Source of the DNA: Escherichia coli
GTDB lineage: Bacteria; Pseudomonadota; Gammaproteobacteria; Enterobacterales; Enterobacteriaceae
Assembly: GCF_003334255.1 (NCBI RefSeq)
Contig: NZ_QOWU01000042.1
Length of the DNA: 47,091 nucleotides
Strand: one strand, 5' to 3'
Shown here: positions 1 through 21,855 of the stretch, one piece after another
Layout of the letters: each line of letters opens with the position of its first letter
Numbering within the stretch: the stretch's first letter is position 1
Program-made: the position numbers and the translations under genes
Notes under the pieces: generated by a model
Databases searched by the model: none
The model's input: the letters and a program-made list of their open reading frames with translations, nothing else
What the model was told of the DNA's origin: nothing

Positions 1-70
1 GCCTGATTGCTGTTGTATGATGATGAAGCGTAAATCGCTGTATAAGTCTTTTGTTTGAGTGGAGTCAGTC

Positions 71-508
71 ATGTCAATACCTTCAAATCTTGATGTTTTT
101 AATGAAACAGTTGGTAAAACTTTTGCGTTTCTTTATGAAACTTTTCCCCGCAAAGTAACTATTGATATTTGTGCCTTAACCGGTGTTTCAGAGCTGACTT
201 TTGAAGAAGACCGATCCTCCAGGAGGCAACTAGTTGAAGCTCTTGAGCTTCGCCGTGACTCCATCGCATGGCTTGTTGATGCTGGTTATGTATCCGCTAA
301 ATCTTCTCCTCCGCATTACTTTTCTGATGCGGTTCTCACGGCCAAAGGTCTTGAATTACTTAAGCTTGATCCAGAGTCACTTAAACAATCATTTGGCGAC
401 AAGCTTGTTGATGCAGCCAAGAGTGGCTCAATGGACGCGATAAAAAGCACCGCATCATCCGCTCTTACTACTGGGTTATCCTTTGCTTTCAAAAGTCTTC
501 TTGGTTGA
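71..508 (+). CDS. hypothetical protein, prophage-associated, unknown function (about 145 aa)
   Basis: ORF track 59..508; a GGAG motif 7 nt upstream favours the ATG at 71. Convergent with the Cox-like gene. No family recognised. Confidence 0.4.
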   Translation: MSIPSNLDVFNETVGKTFAFLYETFPRKVTIDICALTGVSELTFEEDRSSRRQLVEALELRRDSIAWLVDAGYVSAKSSPPHYFSDAVLTAKGLELLKLDPESLKQSFGDKLVDAAKSGSMDAIKSTASSALTTGLSFAFKSLLG

Positions 509-550
509 TTGTTGCGCCCCCGCATAACACCAACGATTAGATTATTTACG

Positions 551-576
551 GCGAAATCTCCTGTTGTGGATTTCGC
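551..576. terminator. hairpin between convergent genes (gcgaaatc / gatttcgc stem, 10-nt loop)
   Basis: Inverted repeat read in sequence, lying between the stop of the 71..508 ORF and the stop of the Cox-like ORF. Confidence 0.35.
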
Positions 577-589
577 TGTGTGTTTGATA

Positions 590-1015
590 TTAAGCTGCTT
601 TTTTACTGATACGTTTATTCCGTGAACCAGCTGCTGGCTTAAATAAAAAAAGTCGGTTTTCCCATTCGTGCCATTCTTGCGGTGCGTTTTCAGTGAGTCG
701 ATCGCAGGCTTCATCCCATGCTTTCCGGTTGATGTAAAGTTCGGCGTTTCCGCCAGGCTTGAGAGGGTCCGCCATGTACACAGCGGGTAATTTCCCTGCT
801 TTTGCCATGCTCACGATGGCGTCAACGGTCTTGCCGATATACATCGCAAACCCTTCTTTTGACAGGAGATGAGAAGGGTTTTGTGAAAGCCTGATTTCTT
901 GGCGTTCAGGGGCTTTGCGCCCGGTCTTTTGGTGTGCGGTTTCTGGCGCATCTGTCAACTGATCGCACTGTGTTTCGGCAGGCGATTCAGGCGCGTTTTG
1001 AGTGACTTCTTGCAT
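590..1015 (-). CDS. P2 Cox-like excisionase/regulator with N-terminal extension
   Basis: C-terminal half (GFAMYIGKTVDAIVSMAKAGKLPAVYMADP...AW) resembles P2 Cox (EFAKLIGKSTGAVRRMIDKGKLPVIDMTDP...AW) as recalled. Start chosen at the ATG at 1013..1015, preceded by GGAGG; the ORF track extends to 1096. Confidence 0.55.
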   Translation of the reverse strand: MQEVTQNAPESPAETQCDQLTDAPETAHQKTGRKAPERQEIRLSQNPSHLLSKEGFAMYIGKTVDAIVSMAKAGKLPAVYMADPLKPGGNAELYINRKAWDEACDRLTENAPQEWHEWENRLFLFKPAAGSRNKRISKKAA

Positions 1016-1122
1016 CTGGTATCCTCCGTTATTGGCCCCTTTTTCGAATAGGGACCATGTAGAACCAATTGCGACTATTCTTGTGTTGCTATACACAAAA
1101 ATTATTGGAGATTAGAAAAATT

Positions 1123-1395
1123 ATGTCAATACCGCAAAATGAGAAATTAAAACTTATCAGAGAGTCCGAACGGATGAAAATGAAGGAACTATCTGATTTA
1201 ATTGGAATTAATTACTATACATATCATGGCTATGAAAGTGGGAAATCTAAGATGCCTCTTGATTTTGGGATCCTTCTTTTGCGGCACGCTCGTTTCCGTA
1301 AATACCGTGACTGGTTTTTGTTCGATGAGGTCGAACCAAAGGCCGGGCAGGTGGTACCGGCTCTCGCACACATTGGGCAAAGCGAAGCGGAATAG
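1123..1395 (+). CDS. P2 C-family immunity repressor paralogue (90 aa), second copy
   Basis: XRE-type helix-turn-helix N-terminus (EKLKLIRESERMKMKELSDLIG...YESGKS) and a C-terminal 33 aa identical to the downstream C repressor. Ends at the TAG at 1393..1395, lacking the last 9 residues of the full-length copy. Confidence 0.55.
   Translation: MSIPQNEKLKLIRESERMKMKELSDLIGINYYTYHGYESGKSKMPLDFGILLLRHARFRKYRDWFLFDEVEPKAGQVVPALAHIGQSEAE
1294..1393. repeat. 100-bp perfect direct repeat, copy 1 (3' end of C-type repressor gene)
   Basis: Identical to 1678..1777 by direct comparison; offset 384 bp. Confidence 0.9.
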
Positions 1396-1506
1396 TTCAT
1401 CTGATACCCTCCGTTATTGGTGCTATTTCTATTAGCACTAGTTAGAGCCGCCTAGATTGTCTATAGGTGTGTTTATTGATGCATAAACTAAGAGAGTTAA
1501 CTTACT

Positions 1507-1806
1507 ATGTCAACTAACGTAGGTGAAAAAATTAGAATCATGCGTAAGTCTGAAATGCTTACACAAGAAAAAATGGCTGAAATTACAGGGCTCACGGTAG
1601 CGGCCCTGCGTCAATATGAACAGGGGAGAAATGAGCCAAATCTTGAATCCACAAAAAAGCTGCTCAAGTCTCCCGTCTTCCGTAAATACCGTGACTGGTT
1701 TTTGTTCGATGAGGTCGAACCAAAGGCCGGGCAGGTGGTACCGGCTCTCGCACACATTGGGCAAAGCGAAGCGGAATCATCCCACTCCGGCAAGAAGACT
1801 GGTTAA
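1507..1806 (+). CDS. P2 C-type immunity repressor (99 aa)
   Basis: 99-aa ORF; sequence (MSTNVGEKIRIMRKSEMLTQ...YEQGRNEP...VPALAHIGQSEAESSHSGKKTG) closely parallels P2 repressor C as recalled (MSNTISEKIVLMRKSEYLSR...YESGRSTP...APALAHFGQNETTSPHSGQKTG). Lies immediately upstream of int. Confidence 0.8.
   Translation: MSTNVGEKIRIMRKSEMLTQEKMAEITGLTVAALRQYEQGRNEPNLESTKKLLKSPVFRKYRDWFLFDEVEPKAGQVVPALAHIGQSEAESSHSGKKTG
1678..1777. repeat. 100-bp perfect direct repeat, copy 2
   Basis: Identical to 1294..1393. Confidence 0.9.
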
Positions 1807-1872: not shown

Positions 1873-2868
1873 ATGTCGATTAAGAAGCTCGCTGATGGCA
1901 AATACTGTGTGGACGTGCGGCCTGCTGGATCTGAAGGAAGAAGATTTCGGCGGCGATTTCCTACCCGTGGTGAAGCGGCGATGTATGAACGCCATGTTCT
2001 GACGCATTATCACGATAAGGACTGGGTCGAAAAACCTATTGAACGTAAAGCGTTAAGCGATCTTCTGGAACTGTGGTGGGTGTACCACGGTAAGAATCAT
2101 CGTTATGGCGCGATGAATCGGGTCAGAATTGAAGCGGTTCTTCGTGATATGCAAGAGCTTGGTATTAACAGAAGTGACCACTTAACCCGAAAAAATATTA
2201 TCAGATATCGCCTTGAATTAATGAATCGCGGAATTAAGCAGTCAACGGTAAATCGTTATTGTGCAATGATGAGCGGTTTCTTTGAAAAGCTGATTGATGT
2301 TGAAGAGTTTGTGGGTGATAACCCATTTCACGAGATACGCAAGCTAACAATTAATCAGCCGGAAATGGCTTATCTTGCACATGATGATATTCCCAGGCTA
2401 ACCGCACTTTTATCTGGCGATAATCTTAAGGCTGTATTGTTAAGCCTGGCTACAGGCGGACGCTGGGGTGAAGTTGCCAATATTAAAGGTGAACACATAA
2501 TTGGTGGGAAGGTTATTTTCATGGAGACAAAGAATGGATCGCGGCGGGTTATTCCTATAGCTAAAGATCTTGAATCTCTGATTAAAGTCAAAGCGACGGG
2601 AAGATTAATGAACCCCAGTTATGCGATAGTCAGAAGTGCAATAAGGACTGTGCGGCCTGATTTACCAGTCGGTCAGTCTGTGCATGTTTTACGGCACACA
2701 TTCGCAACTCATTTCATGATAAATGGAGGGAACATTATTACCCTTCAGCGTATTTTAGGGCACAGCACAATTCAGCAGACAATGACCTATGCGCACTTTG
2801 CACCTGATTATCTCCAGGACGCGGTAAGGTTCAATCCGGTTGCGGAGTTGTCCAGATTTTGCCCATAA
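1873..2868 (+). CDS. int: P2-like tyrosine integrase
   Basis: N-terminus MSIKKLADGKYCVDVRP and C-terminus HVLRHTFATHFMINGGNIITLQRILGHSTIQQTMTYAHFAPDYLQDA parallel P2 Int as recalled, including the catalytic R, H-x-x-R and Y. The ATG at 1873 is preferred over the ORF-track start at 1837. Confidence 0.85.
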   Translation: MSIKKLADGKYCVDVRPAGSEGRRFRRRFPTRGEAAMYERHVLTHYHDKDWVEKPIERKALSDLLELWWVYHGKNHRYGAMNRVRIEAVLRDMQELGINRSDHLTRKNIIRYRLELMNRGIKQSTVNRYCAMMSGFFEKLIDVEEFVGDNPFHEIRKLTINQPEMAYLAHDDIPRLTALLSGDNLKAVLLSLATGGRWGEVANIKGEHIIGGKVIFMETKNGSRRVIPIAKDLESLIKVKATGRLMNPSYAIVRSAIRTVRPDLPVGQSVHVLRHTFATHFMINGGNIITLQRILGHSTIQQTMTYAHFAPDYLQDAVRFNPVAELSRFCP

Positions 2869-2958
2869 ACGGGGACTAAATGGCACGATTTTGAACCACT
2901 TTGAACTTGTAACTATTTGATATATCAAGGGGTAGTGCGGTACACGCTACCCCCTTAT

Positions 2959-2982
2959 GCCACCTTCGGGTGGCGTTGTTTT
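2959..2982 (+). terminator. intrinsic terminator downstream of int (gccacc-ttcg-ggtggc followed by a T-rich run)
   Basis: 6-bp GC stem with a ttcg loop followed by gttgtttt, read in sequence. Confidence 0.5.
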
Positions 2983-3325
2983 ATGCGATGTATCTCGCGA
3001 TTTTTTTTTGTAACTTTTCCATCTTTTGCTTTTCTCTCCGAGCCGCTTTCCATATCTGCAATCGCATAAAAAACTCTGCTGGCGTTCACAAATGTGCAGG
3101 GGTAAAACGGGGGCACGCTTTGAACGGTGAGTATGAGTGAGGTCGGCTAACTTCCAGCAAGTGGCTATGAACAGCAAAATGGTGGTCGGGTTTGCTTGTT
3201 CTTACCGTTCAAGCCTTGCAACCGCTGAGAATAATGATGGTGGAATAGAGAGTTTATTTATCGCGGGCATAAAAAAACCCTTACTAACCGAAGCCCGGCG
3301 TTCAGGGTTATTGCGCTAGAAGAAC

Positions 3326-3856
3326 TTATTTATTCTTTGCGCGCTCGAAGGAAGCAACGATTTCAGCTTTAGCGGCTTCTGCGTTTTCCCAACCTTCAAC
3401 TTTCACCCACTTGCCTTTTTCGAGGTCTTTGTAGTGCTCGAAGAAGTGAGCGATCTGCGCTTTCAGCAGCTCTGGCAGATCGTTAACGTCTTTAATGTGA
3501 TCGTATTCTTTGCTCAGCTTTGTGTGCGGAACAGCAATCAGTTTCGCATCTTCACCGGCTTCGTCGGTCATTTTCAGAACGCCAACCGGACGGCAACGGA
3601 TCACAGAACCCGGCTGCAGCGGGTACGGAGTCGGGACCAGTACGTCAACCGGGTCACCGTCCAGAGACAGGGTGTGGTTGATGTAACCGTAGTTGCACGG
3701 ATAGAACATCGCGGTGGACATGAAGCGGTCAACGAACAGTGCGCCGCTCTCTTTGTCGATTTCGTATTTGATCGGATCTGCGTTAGCCGGGATCTCAATA
3801 ACAACGTAGATGTCTTCCGGCAGATCTTTACCCGCAGGGACGTTGAGTAAGCTCAT
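3326..3856 (-). CDS. ppa: inorganic pyrophosphatase
   Basis: 176-aa ORF; translation matches E. coli Ppa as recalled ([34 protein letters not shown]...). Confidence 0.95.
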
Positions 3857-5129: not shown

Positions 5130-5235
5130 TATGCCTGATGCCGATTCGTAGGCCGGATAAGGCGCTCGCGCCGCATCCGGCGGTGGTGCGCTGAAGCCTG
5201 ATGCGACGCTTACCGCGTCTTATCATGCCTACTGG
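5130..5235. repeat. REP/BIME palindromic units
   Basis: gcctgatgcgacgc... and ...ggccggataaggcg...gccgcatccggc motifs typical of E. coli REP elements. Confidence 0.7.
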
Positions 5236-21568: not shown

Positions 21569-21661
21569 GTTGCCAGCAGGTATTATATCGCCATAAATGC
21601 TACGAATATTATTGGATTCTCCTTATTATTTGCGGCGCTTTTTTCACTTACCGGAGGTTAT

Positions 21662-21715
21662 ATGGAACCTGATCCCACGCCTCTCCCTCGACGGAGATTA
21701 AAACTTTTTCGGTAA
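21662..21715 (+). CDS. mgtL: mgtA leader peptide (17 aa, proline-rich) within the Mg-sensing leader
   Basis: Encodes [17 protein letters not shown], about 140 nt upstream of mgtA. Confidence 0.8.
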
Positions 21716-21855
21716 GCCCGTCTTTTCACGGCGTTACCGGATGCGTAAGGCCGTGACGTTTTAACGTCCCTGCTCAGCTTTATTACCTTCAGGTAAGGCT
21801 TCGCCACGCCTGAAGACATTTCTGTACTGTTTCAGACAGTGCGGAGGGACTCCTT

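Follow-up and report, generated by a model that had tools for sequence, protein, structure and literature searches.

The 47,091-nucleotide (nt) Escherichia coli contig NZ_QOWU01000042.1 (assembly GCF_003334255.1), referred to as a whole as the window and numbered from its first letter as position 1, carries two P2-type lysogeny switches, arrayed as tandem cassettes, at the integrase (int) end of a P88-like (Peduoviridae) prophage that lies beside the host gene ppa. Two adjacent repressor genes, here named C1 and C2, are located between a cox-like gene and int, each with a switch region of its own. An earlier sequence-only reading of this DNA had described them as a tandem duplicated immunity module that might confer immunity to two heteroimmune P2-like phages; its description holds in every factual point except the origin of the array, and it saw one instance of a wider phenomenon, namely two- and three-cassette arrays in shuffled order. 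The explanation that we favor, and that we consider fairly probable as a whole, is that the two-cassette array goes back to one joint followed by cassette shuffling, that both repressors are active and that the lysogen possesses dual immunity.

Two P2-Type Repressor Genes on a Repeat of 384 Nucleotides

According to the open reading frame (ORF) table and to PHROG matches, the gene order in the window is cox (minus strand), C1, C2 and int (all on the plus strand; Table 1). C1 faces cox and C2 precedes int, two positions that are both occupied by the sole C gene in single-cassette relatives. The Cox-family gene (PHROG 1831 and 272; PF10743 in related loci) is transcribed away from the C genes as required for a P2-type switch. 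With regard to repeats, a search of the region recovered the two pairs that the sequence-only reading had pointed out: a 100-nt direct repeat with identity at 100 of 100 positions and a spacing of 384 nt, and a 23-nt repeat with 21 of 23 matches and a spacing of 385 nt that holds the ribosome-binding site and the ATG of cox. With cox on the minus strand, its ATG appears in the numbered sequence as CAT (1013-1015) and its ribosome-binding site GGAGG as TCCTCC (1022-1027). A perfect match of 100 nt within 3 kb is beyond chance.

The two repressors share 52% protein identity overall, which is distributed very unevenly. Among the first 57 residues just 14 agree, residues 58-90 are identical, and the DNA of the variable cores has an identity of about 56% as compared to 91-100% for the flanks, in full agreement with the strong divergence of the N-terminal halves noted before. 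C1 ends with GAA TAG, the stop codon straddling the end of the repeat, and it indeed lacks the last nine codons (SSHSGKKTG) of C2. Affiliation of both genes with the P2 C family, also part of the earlier reading, is borne out by matches to PHROG 147 (1e-28 for C1, 8e-33 for C2) and by gap-free alignments to P2 C (2XCJ/2L49), which extend over residues 1-99 of C2 (E-value 1.6e-26) and residues 5-89 of C1 (E-value 1.9e-19), in each case with the same residue numbers in P2 C. Judged by these alignments, C1 and C2 are both homologues of P2 C-type immunity repressors over their full length. They exhibit the typical pattern of a variable N-terminal helix-turn-helix half and a conserved C-terminal half with the motif FRKYRDWF ... 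GQ.xPALAH, which is present in 120 homologues. The length of about 99 residues that is typical of the family is found for C2 (99 amino acids) and not for C1 (90 amino acids); the missing tail makes C1 a less typical family member, not one less likely to be a working repressor.

In the following, the core containing C1 is termed type A, that containing C2 type B, and a third core encountered in related loci (repressor starting with MDIPQK...) type 0. The recognition helix (helix 3, assigned after PMC2995052) reads YYTYHGYES in type A, VAALRQYEQ in type B and YSALTSYEY in type 0.

Promoters and Candidate Operators

Both cassettes contain a left-facing early promoter, Pe. In cassette A, the -35 element TTGACA (1129..1124) lies over the C1 start codon and is separated by 17 nt from the -10 element AATAAT (1106..1101), which amounts to a near-consensus sigma-70 promoter with 11 of 12 matches in the promoter scan. 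In cassette B, the -35 element TTGACA (1513..1508) likewise lies over the start codon, that of C2, and a spacer of 17 nt leads to TAGTTT (1490..1485) as the -10 element. The stretch comprising Pe(B) differs by one substitution in the single-cassette prophage of strain DETEC-S792, and P88 has identical -10 and -35 hexamers. The P2 switch is built from convergent promoters Pe and Pc (PMC1904263), a design matched by the left-facing promoters of the cassettes. A terminator scan did not reveal any terminator-like site between the cassettes on either strand. Cox boxes were not identified at the locus.

P2-type repressors bind to two direct repeats, the sequence, spacing and position of which vary with the immunity type (PMC1904268; PMC4752584). 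Direct repeats that may serve as operators, expected upstream of each copy by the sequence-only reading, were found as candidates in both cassettes. In cassette A the putative half-sites A(C/G)AAAAATTAT at 1095-1105 and 1114-1124 lie 19 nt apart, match at 10 of 11 positions and span the -10 element and the spacer of Pe(A). The candidates in cassette B, GTGTGTTTAT at 1467-1476 and GAGAGTTAAC at 1492-1501, are weak (6 of 10 matches, 25 nt apart). The same geometry is displayed more clearly by P88, with 8 of 10 matches, and the pattern common to type B and P88 is G(T/A)G(T/A)GTT(T/A)A, occurring twice at a distance of 25 nt. For type 0, the candidate half-site CATATGT(G/A)G occurs twice, 21 nt apart, with 8 of 9 matches. 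Each core type is hence equipped with its own pair of direct repeats around the -10 element of its Pe. As recognition helices and candidate direct repeats both differ by type, types A, B and 0 are likely heteroimmune.

The Upstream Repressor Corresponds to P2 C Lacking Its Last Nine Residues

Removal of exactly the last nine residues from P2 C leaves repression unchanged (Massad et al., PMC2995052). The last 14 residues are disordered in the crystal structure of that protein (PMC2995052), and nuclear magnetic resonance indicated that the tail, beginning near residue 85, stays flexible on DNA as well (PMC4752584). As C1 aligns to P2 C position for position, it equals P2 C(1-90) in terms of its sequence. 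The upstream copy is taken here as a presumably working repressor because the equivalent P2 C(1-90) represses normally.

The reading frame is free of frameshifts and internal stops in all 51 truncated copies sampled. Within the DNA-binding part of these copies, three synonymous changes and a single conservative non-synonymous one (I3M) were counted, too few to decide about selection in a sample that is small and was partly chosen by exact protein match. Apart from arrays, two P88-type prophages (on contigs L024, 1295-1567, and L025, 690-962) have a sole repressor gene with a TCA>TAA change at codon 91; these copies are natural C(1-90) forms that originated by point mutation, independently of the array junction.

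Both Cores Occur Alone in Sister Prophages

A survey of 5,426 complete E. coli genomes, 35 of which contain this group of repressors, yielded five genomes that carry the backbone of the window at about 99% identity, with a match that is 384-391 nt shorter than the query in each. Core B alone, in the order cox, core B, full-length C2 and int, is present in DETEC-S792 and three other complete genomes in the same backbone and at the same site, and these prophages are collinear with the window once 1036-1420 are removed. Core A alone, with a C1 of full length (99 amino acids), resides in E. coli JNEC-KY202. Its DNA is 100% identical to window positions 1036-1393, and it is collinear with the window after removal of one 384-nt unit between the 100-nt repeats. 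The possibility of deletions between the repeats, raised by the sequence-only reading, fits these arrangements: JNEC-KY202 is collinear with the product expected from recombination in the 100-nt repeat, DETEC-S792 with that expected from recombination in the 23-nt repeat.

Since sister prophages contain either core by itself, with a repressor of full length, A and B are, on the evidence of these sequences, alternative immunity cassettes of one phage lineage, both of which are carried by the window. This bears directly on the proposal that the genes are paralogues produced by tandem duplication. Two units of about 384 nt with conserved flanks and a divergent core do exist as described, and their regular period of 384/385 nt and the conservation of both unit ends are just what a duplication in place, with subsequent divergence of the core into two paralogues, would leave behind. 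However, no uniform process of divergence yields cores that are about 56% identical between flanks with 91-100% identity; both cores are also found singly, at 98-100% identity, in prophages elsewhere, some strains have the cassettes in the opposite order (B-A), and the same junction also joins a third type. We reject this origin as highly improbable. From the contrast between cores and flanks and from the existence of both cores on their own, the sequences indicate that the array is the result of recombination between heteroimmune phages and not of duplication followed by divergence.

Arrays of Two and Three Cassettes in Public Assemblies

An exact-protein look-up placed the 90-residue C1 protein in 226 blocks of public assemblies. 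Some of the respective loci contain the same A-B pair, others three repressor genes (88, 90, and 99 amino acids) ahead of int. In an exact-sequence look-up of contigs, every predicted truncated form was encountered: for type A in 192 + 31 contigs (full-length form in 976), for type B in 9 (full-length form in 819) and for type 0 in 240 + 53 + 20 + 8 + 4 + 4 contigs (full-length form in 686). Six compositions could be read directly, Ad-B as in the window, Bd-A, 0d-B, 0d-A, 0d-Ad-B and 0d-Bd-A, where d denotes a truncated copy. All repressors except the last one in an array are cut at residue 90 (88 in type 0). Several alleles exist per core type and are spread over different arrays. Among the loci read, type 0 always took the cox-proximal position in arrays; in its full-length form it always stood alone (ten places displayed of 25 contigs read). 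The arrays reside in hosts with and without the toxin-antitoxin genes chpSB beside ppa and have differing early-gene neighbors. They stem from NCBI isolate assemblies, ENA metagenome assemblies, Logan contigs and two IMG/VR viral contigs.

No sign of such arrays was obtained for other P2-like groups. A pattern scan requiring WF(L/M)FDE codons in both copies and a gap of 350-380 nt returned just two contigs from IMG/VR, both belonging to the P88-like array family described here, and none from 100,044 species-representative genomes. There was no match for the junction sequence in JGI metagenomes and no array among the sequenced phages searched, including P88, which lacks the junction sequence.

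Given the perfect 100-nt repeat, the origin of all arrays from draft or metagenome assemblies and the fact that several contigs end close to the array, an artefact caused by a collapsed or expanded repeat or by the chimeric joining of two co-resident prophages had to be taken into account, as the sequence-only reading itself had done. The junction GAATAGTTCATCTGATACC is not contained in any single-cassette phage, so that an assembler could not have made it from such reads, and the same structure was obtained by different assemblers and from different sources (NCBI isolates, ENA contigs of the NODE_ and k141_ types, Logan and the two IMG/VR contigs). As truncated copies are present in several hundred independent draft assemblies and in two viral contigs, we regard an assembly artefact as excluded, its probability being practically negligible. 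Hundreds of repressor homologues of the upstream ORF were found, and tandem C genes recur in many independent assemblies; both reservations attached to the earlier reading are thereby removed.

A Common Junction and Cassette Shuffling

In all sampled arrays, every joint between cassettes reads GAATAGT(C/T)CATCTGAT(A/G)CCCTCCGTTATTGG, irrespective of the types that are joined. In phages with one cassette, the C end reads GGAATCATCCC and the cox start CTTGCATCTGG; the array joint differs from both and so constitutes a sequence of its own. The conserved block between two cores comprises 127 nt, i.e., 100 + 4 + 23 nt, and the four junction bases are either AGTT or AGTC. The sharing of one sequence by all inter-cassette junctions points to a single old illegitimate joint with subsequent shuffling of cassettes by homologous recombination in the 127-nt block. 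The old joint would have fused the 3' part of a C gene to the start of a cox gene, possibly when two phages crossed over or when a tandem double lysogen suffered a deletion. A simple crossover at CATCTGG, which is common to the stretch after the C stop (TCCATCTGG) and the cox start (GCATCTGG), was considered and fails to give the observed joint.

Once such a joint existed, crossover within the 100-nt part between a single-cassette phage and an array would replace the first cassette, crossover inside a shared core between a 0-A and an A-B array would generate an array with three cassettes, and crossover between two blocks of the same array would delete a cassette. Traces of exchange are indeed present in type 0. 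Its truncated copies show four combinations of three polymorphisms (I/V, R/H, T/S) inside the 100-nt block, which exists either in a diverged form (QVIPALARIGQTEAE) or in a form identical to the A and B blocks (contigs L006, L007 and L011 as compared to L008 and L009; e.g., L006, 3622-3888), with intermediate haplotypes in other assemblies. In two three-cassette arrays, the block of copy 0 is identical to those of copies A and B. These haplotypes indicate gene conversion or crossovers inside the 100-nt block.

A 56-codon ORF on the minus strand (1230..1400), antisense to the 3' end of C1, takes its ATG and ribosome-binding site from the orphan cox start in cassette B. Its translation would occur only when Pe(B) fires, and it probably represents a by-product of the junction.

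Function of the Array

According to the explanation favored here, each cassette consists of the 23-nt cox start, a type-specific promoter/operator region, the type-specific DNA-binding half of C and the 100-nt 3' block of C. Cassette A adjoins the real cox gene, and its repressor stops at residue 90 owing to fusion of its 3' block to the cox-start remnant of cassette B; cassette B supplies a full-length repressor, followed by int. Both repressors would be produced in the lysogen, each shutting its own left-facing early promoter, with the consequence that the prophage would be kept silent and that the cell would be immune to superinfecting phages of both types (of three types in the case of three-cassette arrays). 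By analogy with P2, an array lysogen is probably immune to several related phages at once, and such multi-specific immunity is the best reading because the upstream repressor stops where the fully active P2 C(1-90) stops.

A number of points weigh against this explanation. No array junction was detected in the 5,426 complete E. coli genomes, including the 35 with this repressor group, and all evidence for arrays comes from draft or metagenome assemblies. The window itself holds just the last 2.9 kb of the prophage, starting 1.1 kb to the left of C1. The -10 element of Pe(B) is poor (3 of 6 matches), falls below the threshold of the promoter scan and was read directly from the sequence. The candidate direct repeats are assigned as operators by analogy with P2 (PMC4752584; PMC1904268). 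A consensus scan did not find any plus-strand promoter in 950-1900, and Pc was not located. In view of the near identity of the truncated copies, a recent origin, and not selection, could account for their intact reading frames and for the preponderance of synonymous changes. Finally, residues 58-90, which are identical in C1 and C2, include part of the dimer interface, and mixed dimers might form and weaken both repressors.

Some of these points would equally suit a neutral scar, left by recombination of heteroimmune sister phages or by deletion in a tandem double lysogen, in which the truncated upstream repressor and the orphan downstream promoter have no selected role and are bound to decay or to be deleted. 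The junction looks illegitimate, with 4 nt of unassigned origin and a meaningless 56-codon ORF that opens from the leftover ribosome-binding site and ATG; single-cassette forms are commoner, the full-length counts given above standing against a few hundred truncated copies; none of the complete genomes searched has an array, and the pattern scans revealed tandem C genes in no other phage group. On the other hand, arrays have been retained in several hundred assemblies; they come in no fewer than six compositions, include several alleles of each core and occupy two host backgrounds. No defect was found in any of the 51 truncated copies sampled, and the same truncation leaves P2 C fully active, so that the upstream copy would repress whether selected or not. 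We consider a neutral scar rather unlikely. A clearly smaller probability is assigned to the idea, also put forward in the sequence-only reading, that C1 acts as a decoy or a dominant-negative subunit, or else as an antirepressor-resistant variant, by way of its missing tail or of mixed dimers with C2. C proteins share a conserved tail, which has been proposed as a contact for other proteins such as the P4 E antirepressor or RNA polymerase (PMC2995052), and the shared residues 58-90 would be compatible with mixed dimers. Yet the truncation is a fixed consequence of the common junction that hits whichever type is upstream (A, B or 0) and is not tuned to one repressor, helix 4 as a main part of the dimer interface differs strongly between C1 (DFGILLLRH) and C2 (LESTKKLLKS), and a dominant-negative copy would destabilize lysogeny, whereas arrays persist. 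A special role of this kind is very unlikely.

An extension of the dual-immunity explanation, which we put forward tentatively and hold to be possible rather than likely, is that arrays act as shield and sword in the competition of sister phages that have the integrase and the attachment site in common. As each cassette keeps an early promoter aimed at cox with no terminator in between, an array phage entering a cell that contains only one of the repressors would fire its other promoter or promoters into cox and the early operon, and an array lysogen would meanwhile repress every single-type phage. If true, a nested order of dominance would result, with 0-A-B over A-B over B, together with a ratchet by which new specificities are added in the cox-proximal position and old repressors are kept. 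The exclusively cox-proximal location of type 0 in the arrays read fits this picture.

Relation to Known Immunity Systems

The components of the array are those of the classical P2 switch; their stacked arrangement is not. P2-type C proteins consist of a variable N-terminal and a conserved C-terminal half (PMC3448106), and seven immunity classes have been distinguished among P2-like coliphages (PMC2995052). A study of 31 P2-like regulatory regions did not report any chimeric regulatory region and did not mention duplication or tandem copies (PMC3448106). Treating E. coli K88 with mitomycin C led to the recovery of phage P88 (PMC5285337). The window resembles P2, P2 Hy dis and W-phi in C proteins that align over the full length, in the Cox family, in the tyrosine integrase and in gene order, and the likeness to the P2 switch includes a Pe that faces cox, type-specific direct repeats near the -10 element and the division of C into variable and conserved halves. 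On the other hand, the described P2-like phages contain one switch, whereas two or three whole cassettes are stacked between cox and int here, and the Cox protein of the window has 141 amino acids and a long N-terminal extension. Escherichia phage P88 (genus Xuanwuvirus, Peduoviridae) is the closest sequenced phage, with 76-83% DNA identity over cox-C-int, a recognition helix close to that of C2 and related prophages at the same int/ppa site; it differs in having a single cassette without the junction sequence. In the literature on tandem or multiple repressors in P2-like or P88-like phages, searched largely without subscription journals, no such arrangement is described.

By analogy of logic, the closest parallels are orphan module arrays of contact-dependent inhibition (CDI) and Rhs systems and the rstR arrays of CTX-phi/RS1. 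CDI (cdiA-CT/cdiI) and Rhs loci contain arrays of orphan toxin-immunity modules in which variable modules are swapped via conserved flanks, and older modules are kept in truncated form and still protect against relatives. The logic is the same and the molecules are unrelated: the present arrays consist of phage repressors and operators, and the element retained is a complete repressor gene with promoters. In CTX-phi/RS1 prophage arrays of Vibrio cholerae, tandem heteroimmune rstR alleles at one site broaden immunity. There, whole elements are repeated by successive integration, whereas here only a switch cassette of 384 nt is repeated inside one phage genome. A match of C2 to the RstR family is weak and stays below the threshold. 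The multipartite systems of P22 (immC/immI) and P1 (immC/immI/immT) likewise provide one phage with several determinants of immunity. Those systems combine different kinds of regulators (a repressor and antirepressor control) at separate loci, as opposed to the homologous repressor-operator cassettes stacked here.

Usual teaching assigns one repressor and one specificity to each phage, with new specificities arising by a swap of the immunity region. The arrays represent a third route, in which whole repressor-operator cassettes are stacked and then shuffled through recombination within short conserved stretches at their boundaries. Provided that the cassettes are active, one prophage of 36 kb would shield its host from siblings of two or three families competing for one attachment site, and the history of this competition could be read from the number and order of cassettes. 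The system, small and built from well-understood P2 parts, is present in hundreds of sequenced E. coli isolates, and versions with one, two and three cassettes occur naturally. For synthetic biology, it offers three compact repressor-operator pairs of natural origin that have a common scaffold and are probably orthogonal.

Features of the Locus and Its Surroundings

TABLE 1. Positions of the array, its boundaries and the adjoining genes in the 47,091-nt window.
Feature	Position	Strand	Basis or remark
cox-like gene, 141 amino acids	590..1015	-	PHROG 1831 at 2.8e-50; PHROG 272 "Cox-like excisionase and repressor"
First copy of the conserved 23-nt block, at the left edge of cassette A	1013..1035		cox start codon and ribosome-binding site
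Switch region, cassette A	1036..1122		Pe(A) facing cox
C1, type A repressor, residues 1-90	1123..1395	+	ORF 1069..1395 read from ATG at 1123
Conserved 100-nt block, copy 1; codes for repressor residues 58-90	1294..1393		Repeat search
Fixed array junction: stop TAG (1393-1395) followed by TT	1393..1397		Same sequence at all inter-cassette joints of the sampled arrays
Conserved 23-nt block, copy 2	1398..1420		Remnant cox start codon and ribosome-binding site, no cox gene behind
Switch region, cassette B	1421..1506		Pe(B) facing left
C2, type B repressor, full length, 99 amino acids	1507..1806	+	ORF table
Conserved 100-nt block, copy 2	1678..1777		Repeat search
Tyrosine integrase, 331 amino acids; last gene of the lysogenic operon	1873..2868	+	PHROG 1 at 4e-65; PF00589 in related loci
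Host ppa	3326..3856	-	ORF table

The cox-like gene is the lytic-side regulator and excisionase gene and the true first gene of the early operon. Its product is identical in DETEC-S792 and in three-cassette arrays and carries PF10743 (Phage_Cox) in related loci. Relatives of the prophage are inserted between ytfP and chpS/ppa. The sister prophage of DETEC-S792, 100% identical to window positions 1-1035, is a complete P2-type prophage of 36.7 kb between ytfP and chpS. Several array-bearing contigs (L011-L014) stop inside or just to the left of the array, resembling the left end of the window; such contig ends would fit assembly breaks in repeated prophage sequence, which limits statements on the completeness of the prophages.

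To the left of cox, an ORF of 145 codons (59..508) lies on the plus strand, in the reverse orientation to cox and the early genes. Its product has a match in PHROG 2266, a family of unknown function (1.4e-31), and none in PADLOC or NCBIfam. As this ORF is found only in some sister prophages (e.g., on contigs L005, L010, L013 and L017 and in DETEC-S792), it looks like an accessory "moron" gene. The chpSB toxin-antitoxin pair that many E. coli strains have between int and ppa is absent from window positions 2869..3326, where a chpB-like remnant with 72% identity at 3119-3243 is its sole trace. Rfam matches elsewhere in the window are unconnected with the array and comprise a magnesium riboswitch (21647-21762) ahead of an 898-codon ORF that is probably mgtA, a tRNA (44588-44669), a match to Ysr276 (39306-39500) and four naRNA4 elements of the repetitive extragenic palindromic (REP) type at 5151, 11392, 38301, and 38397.

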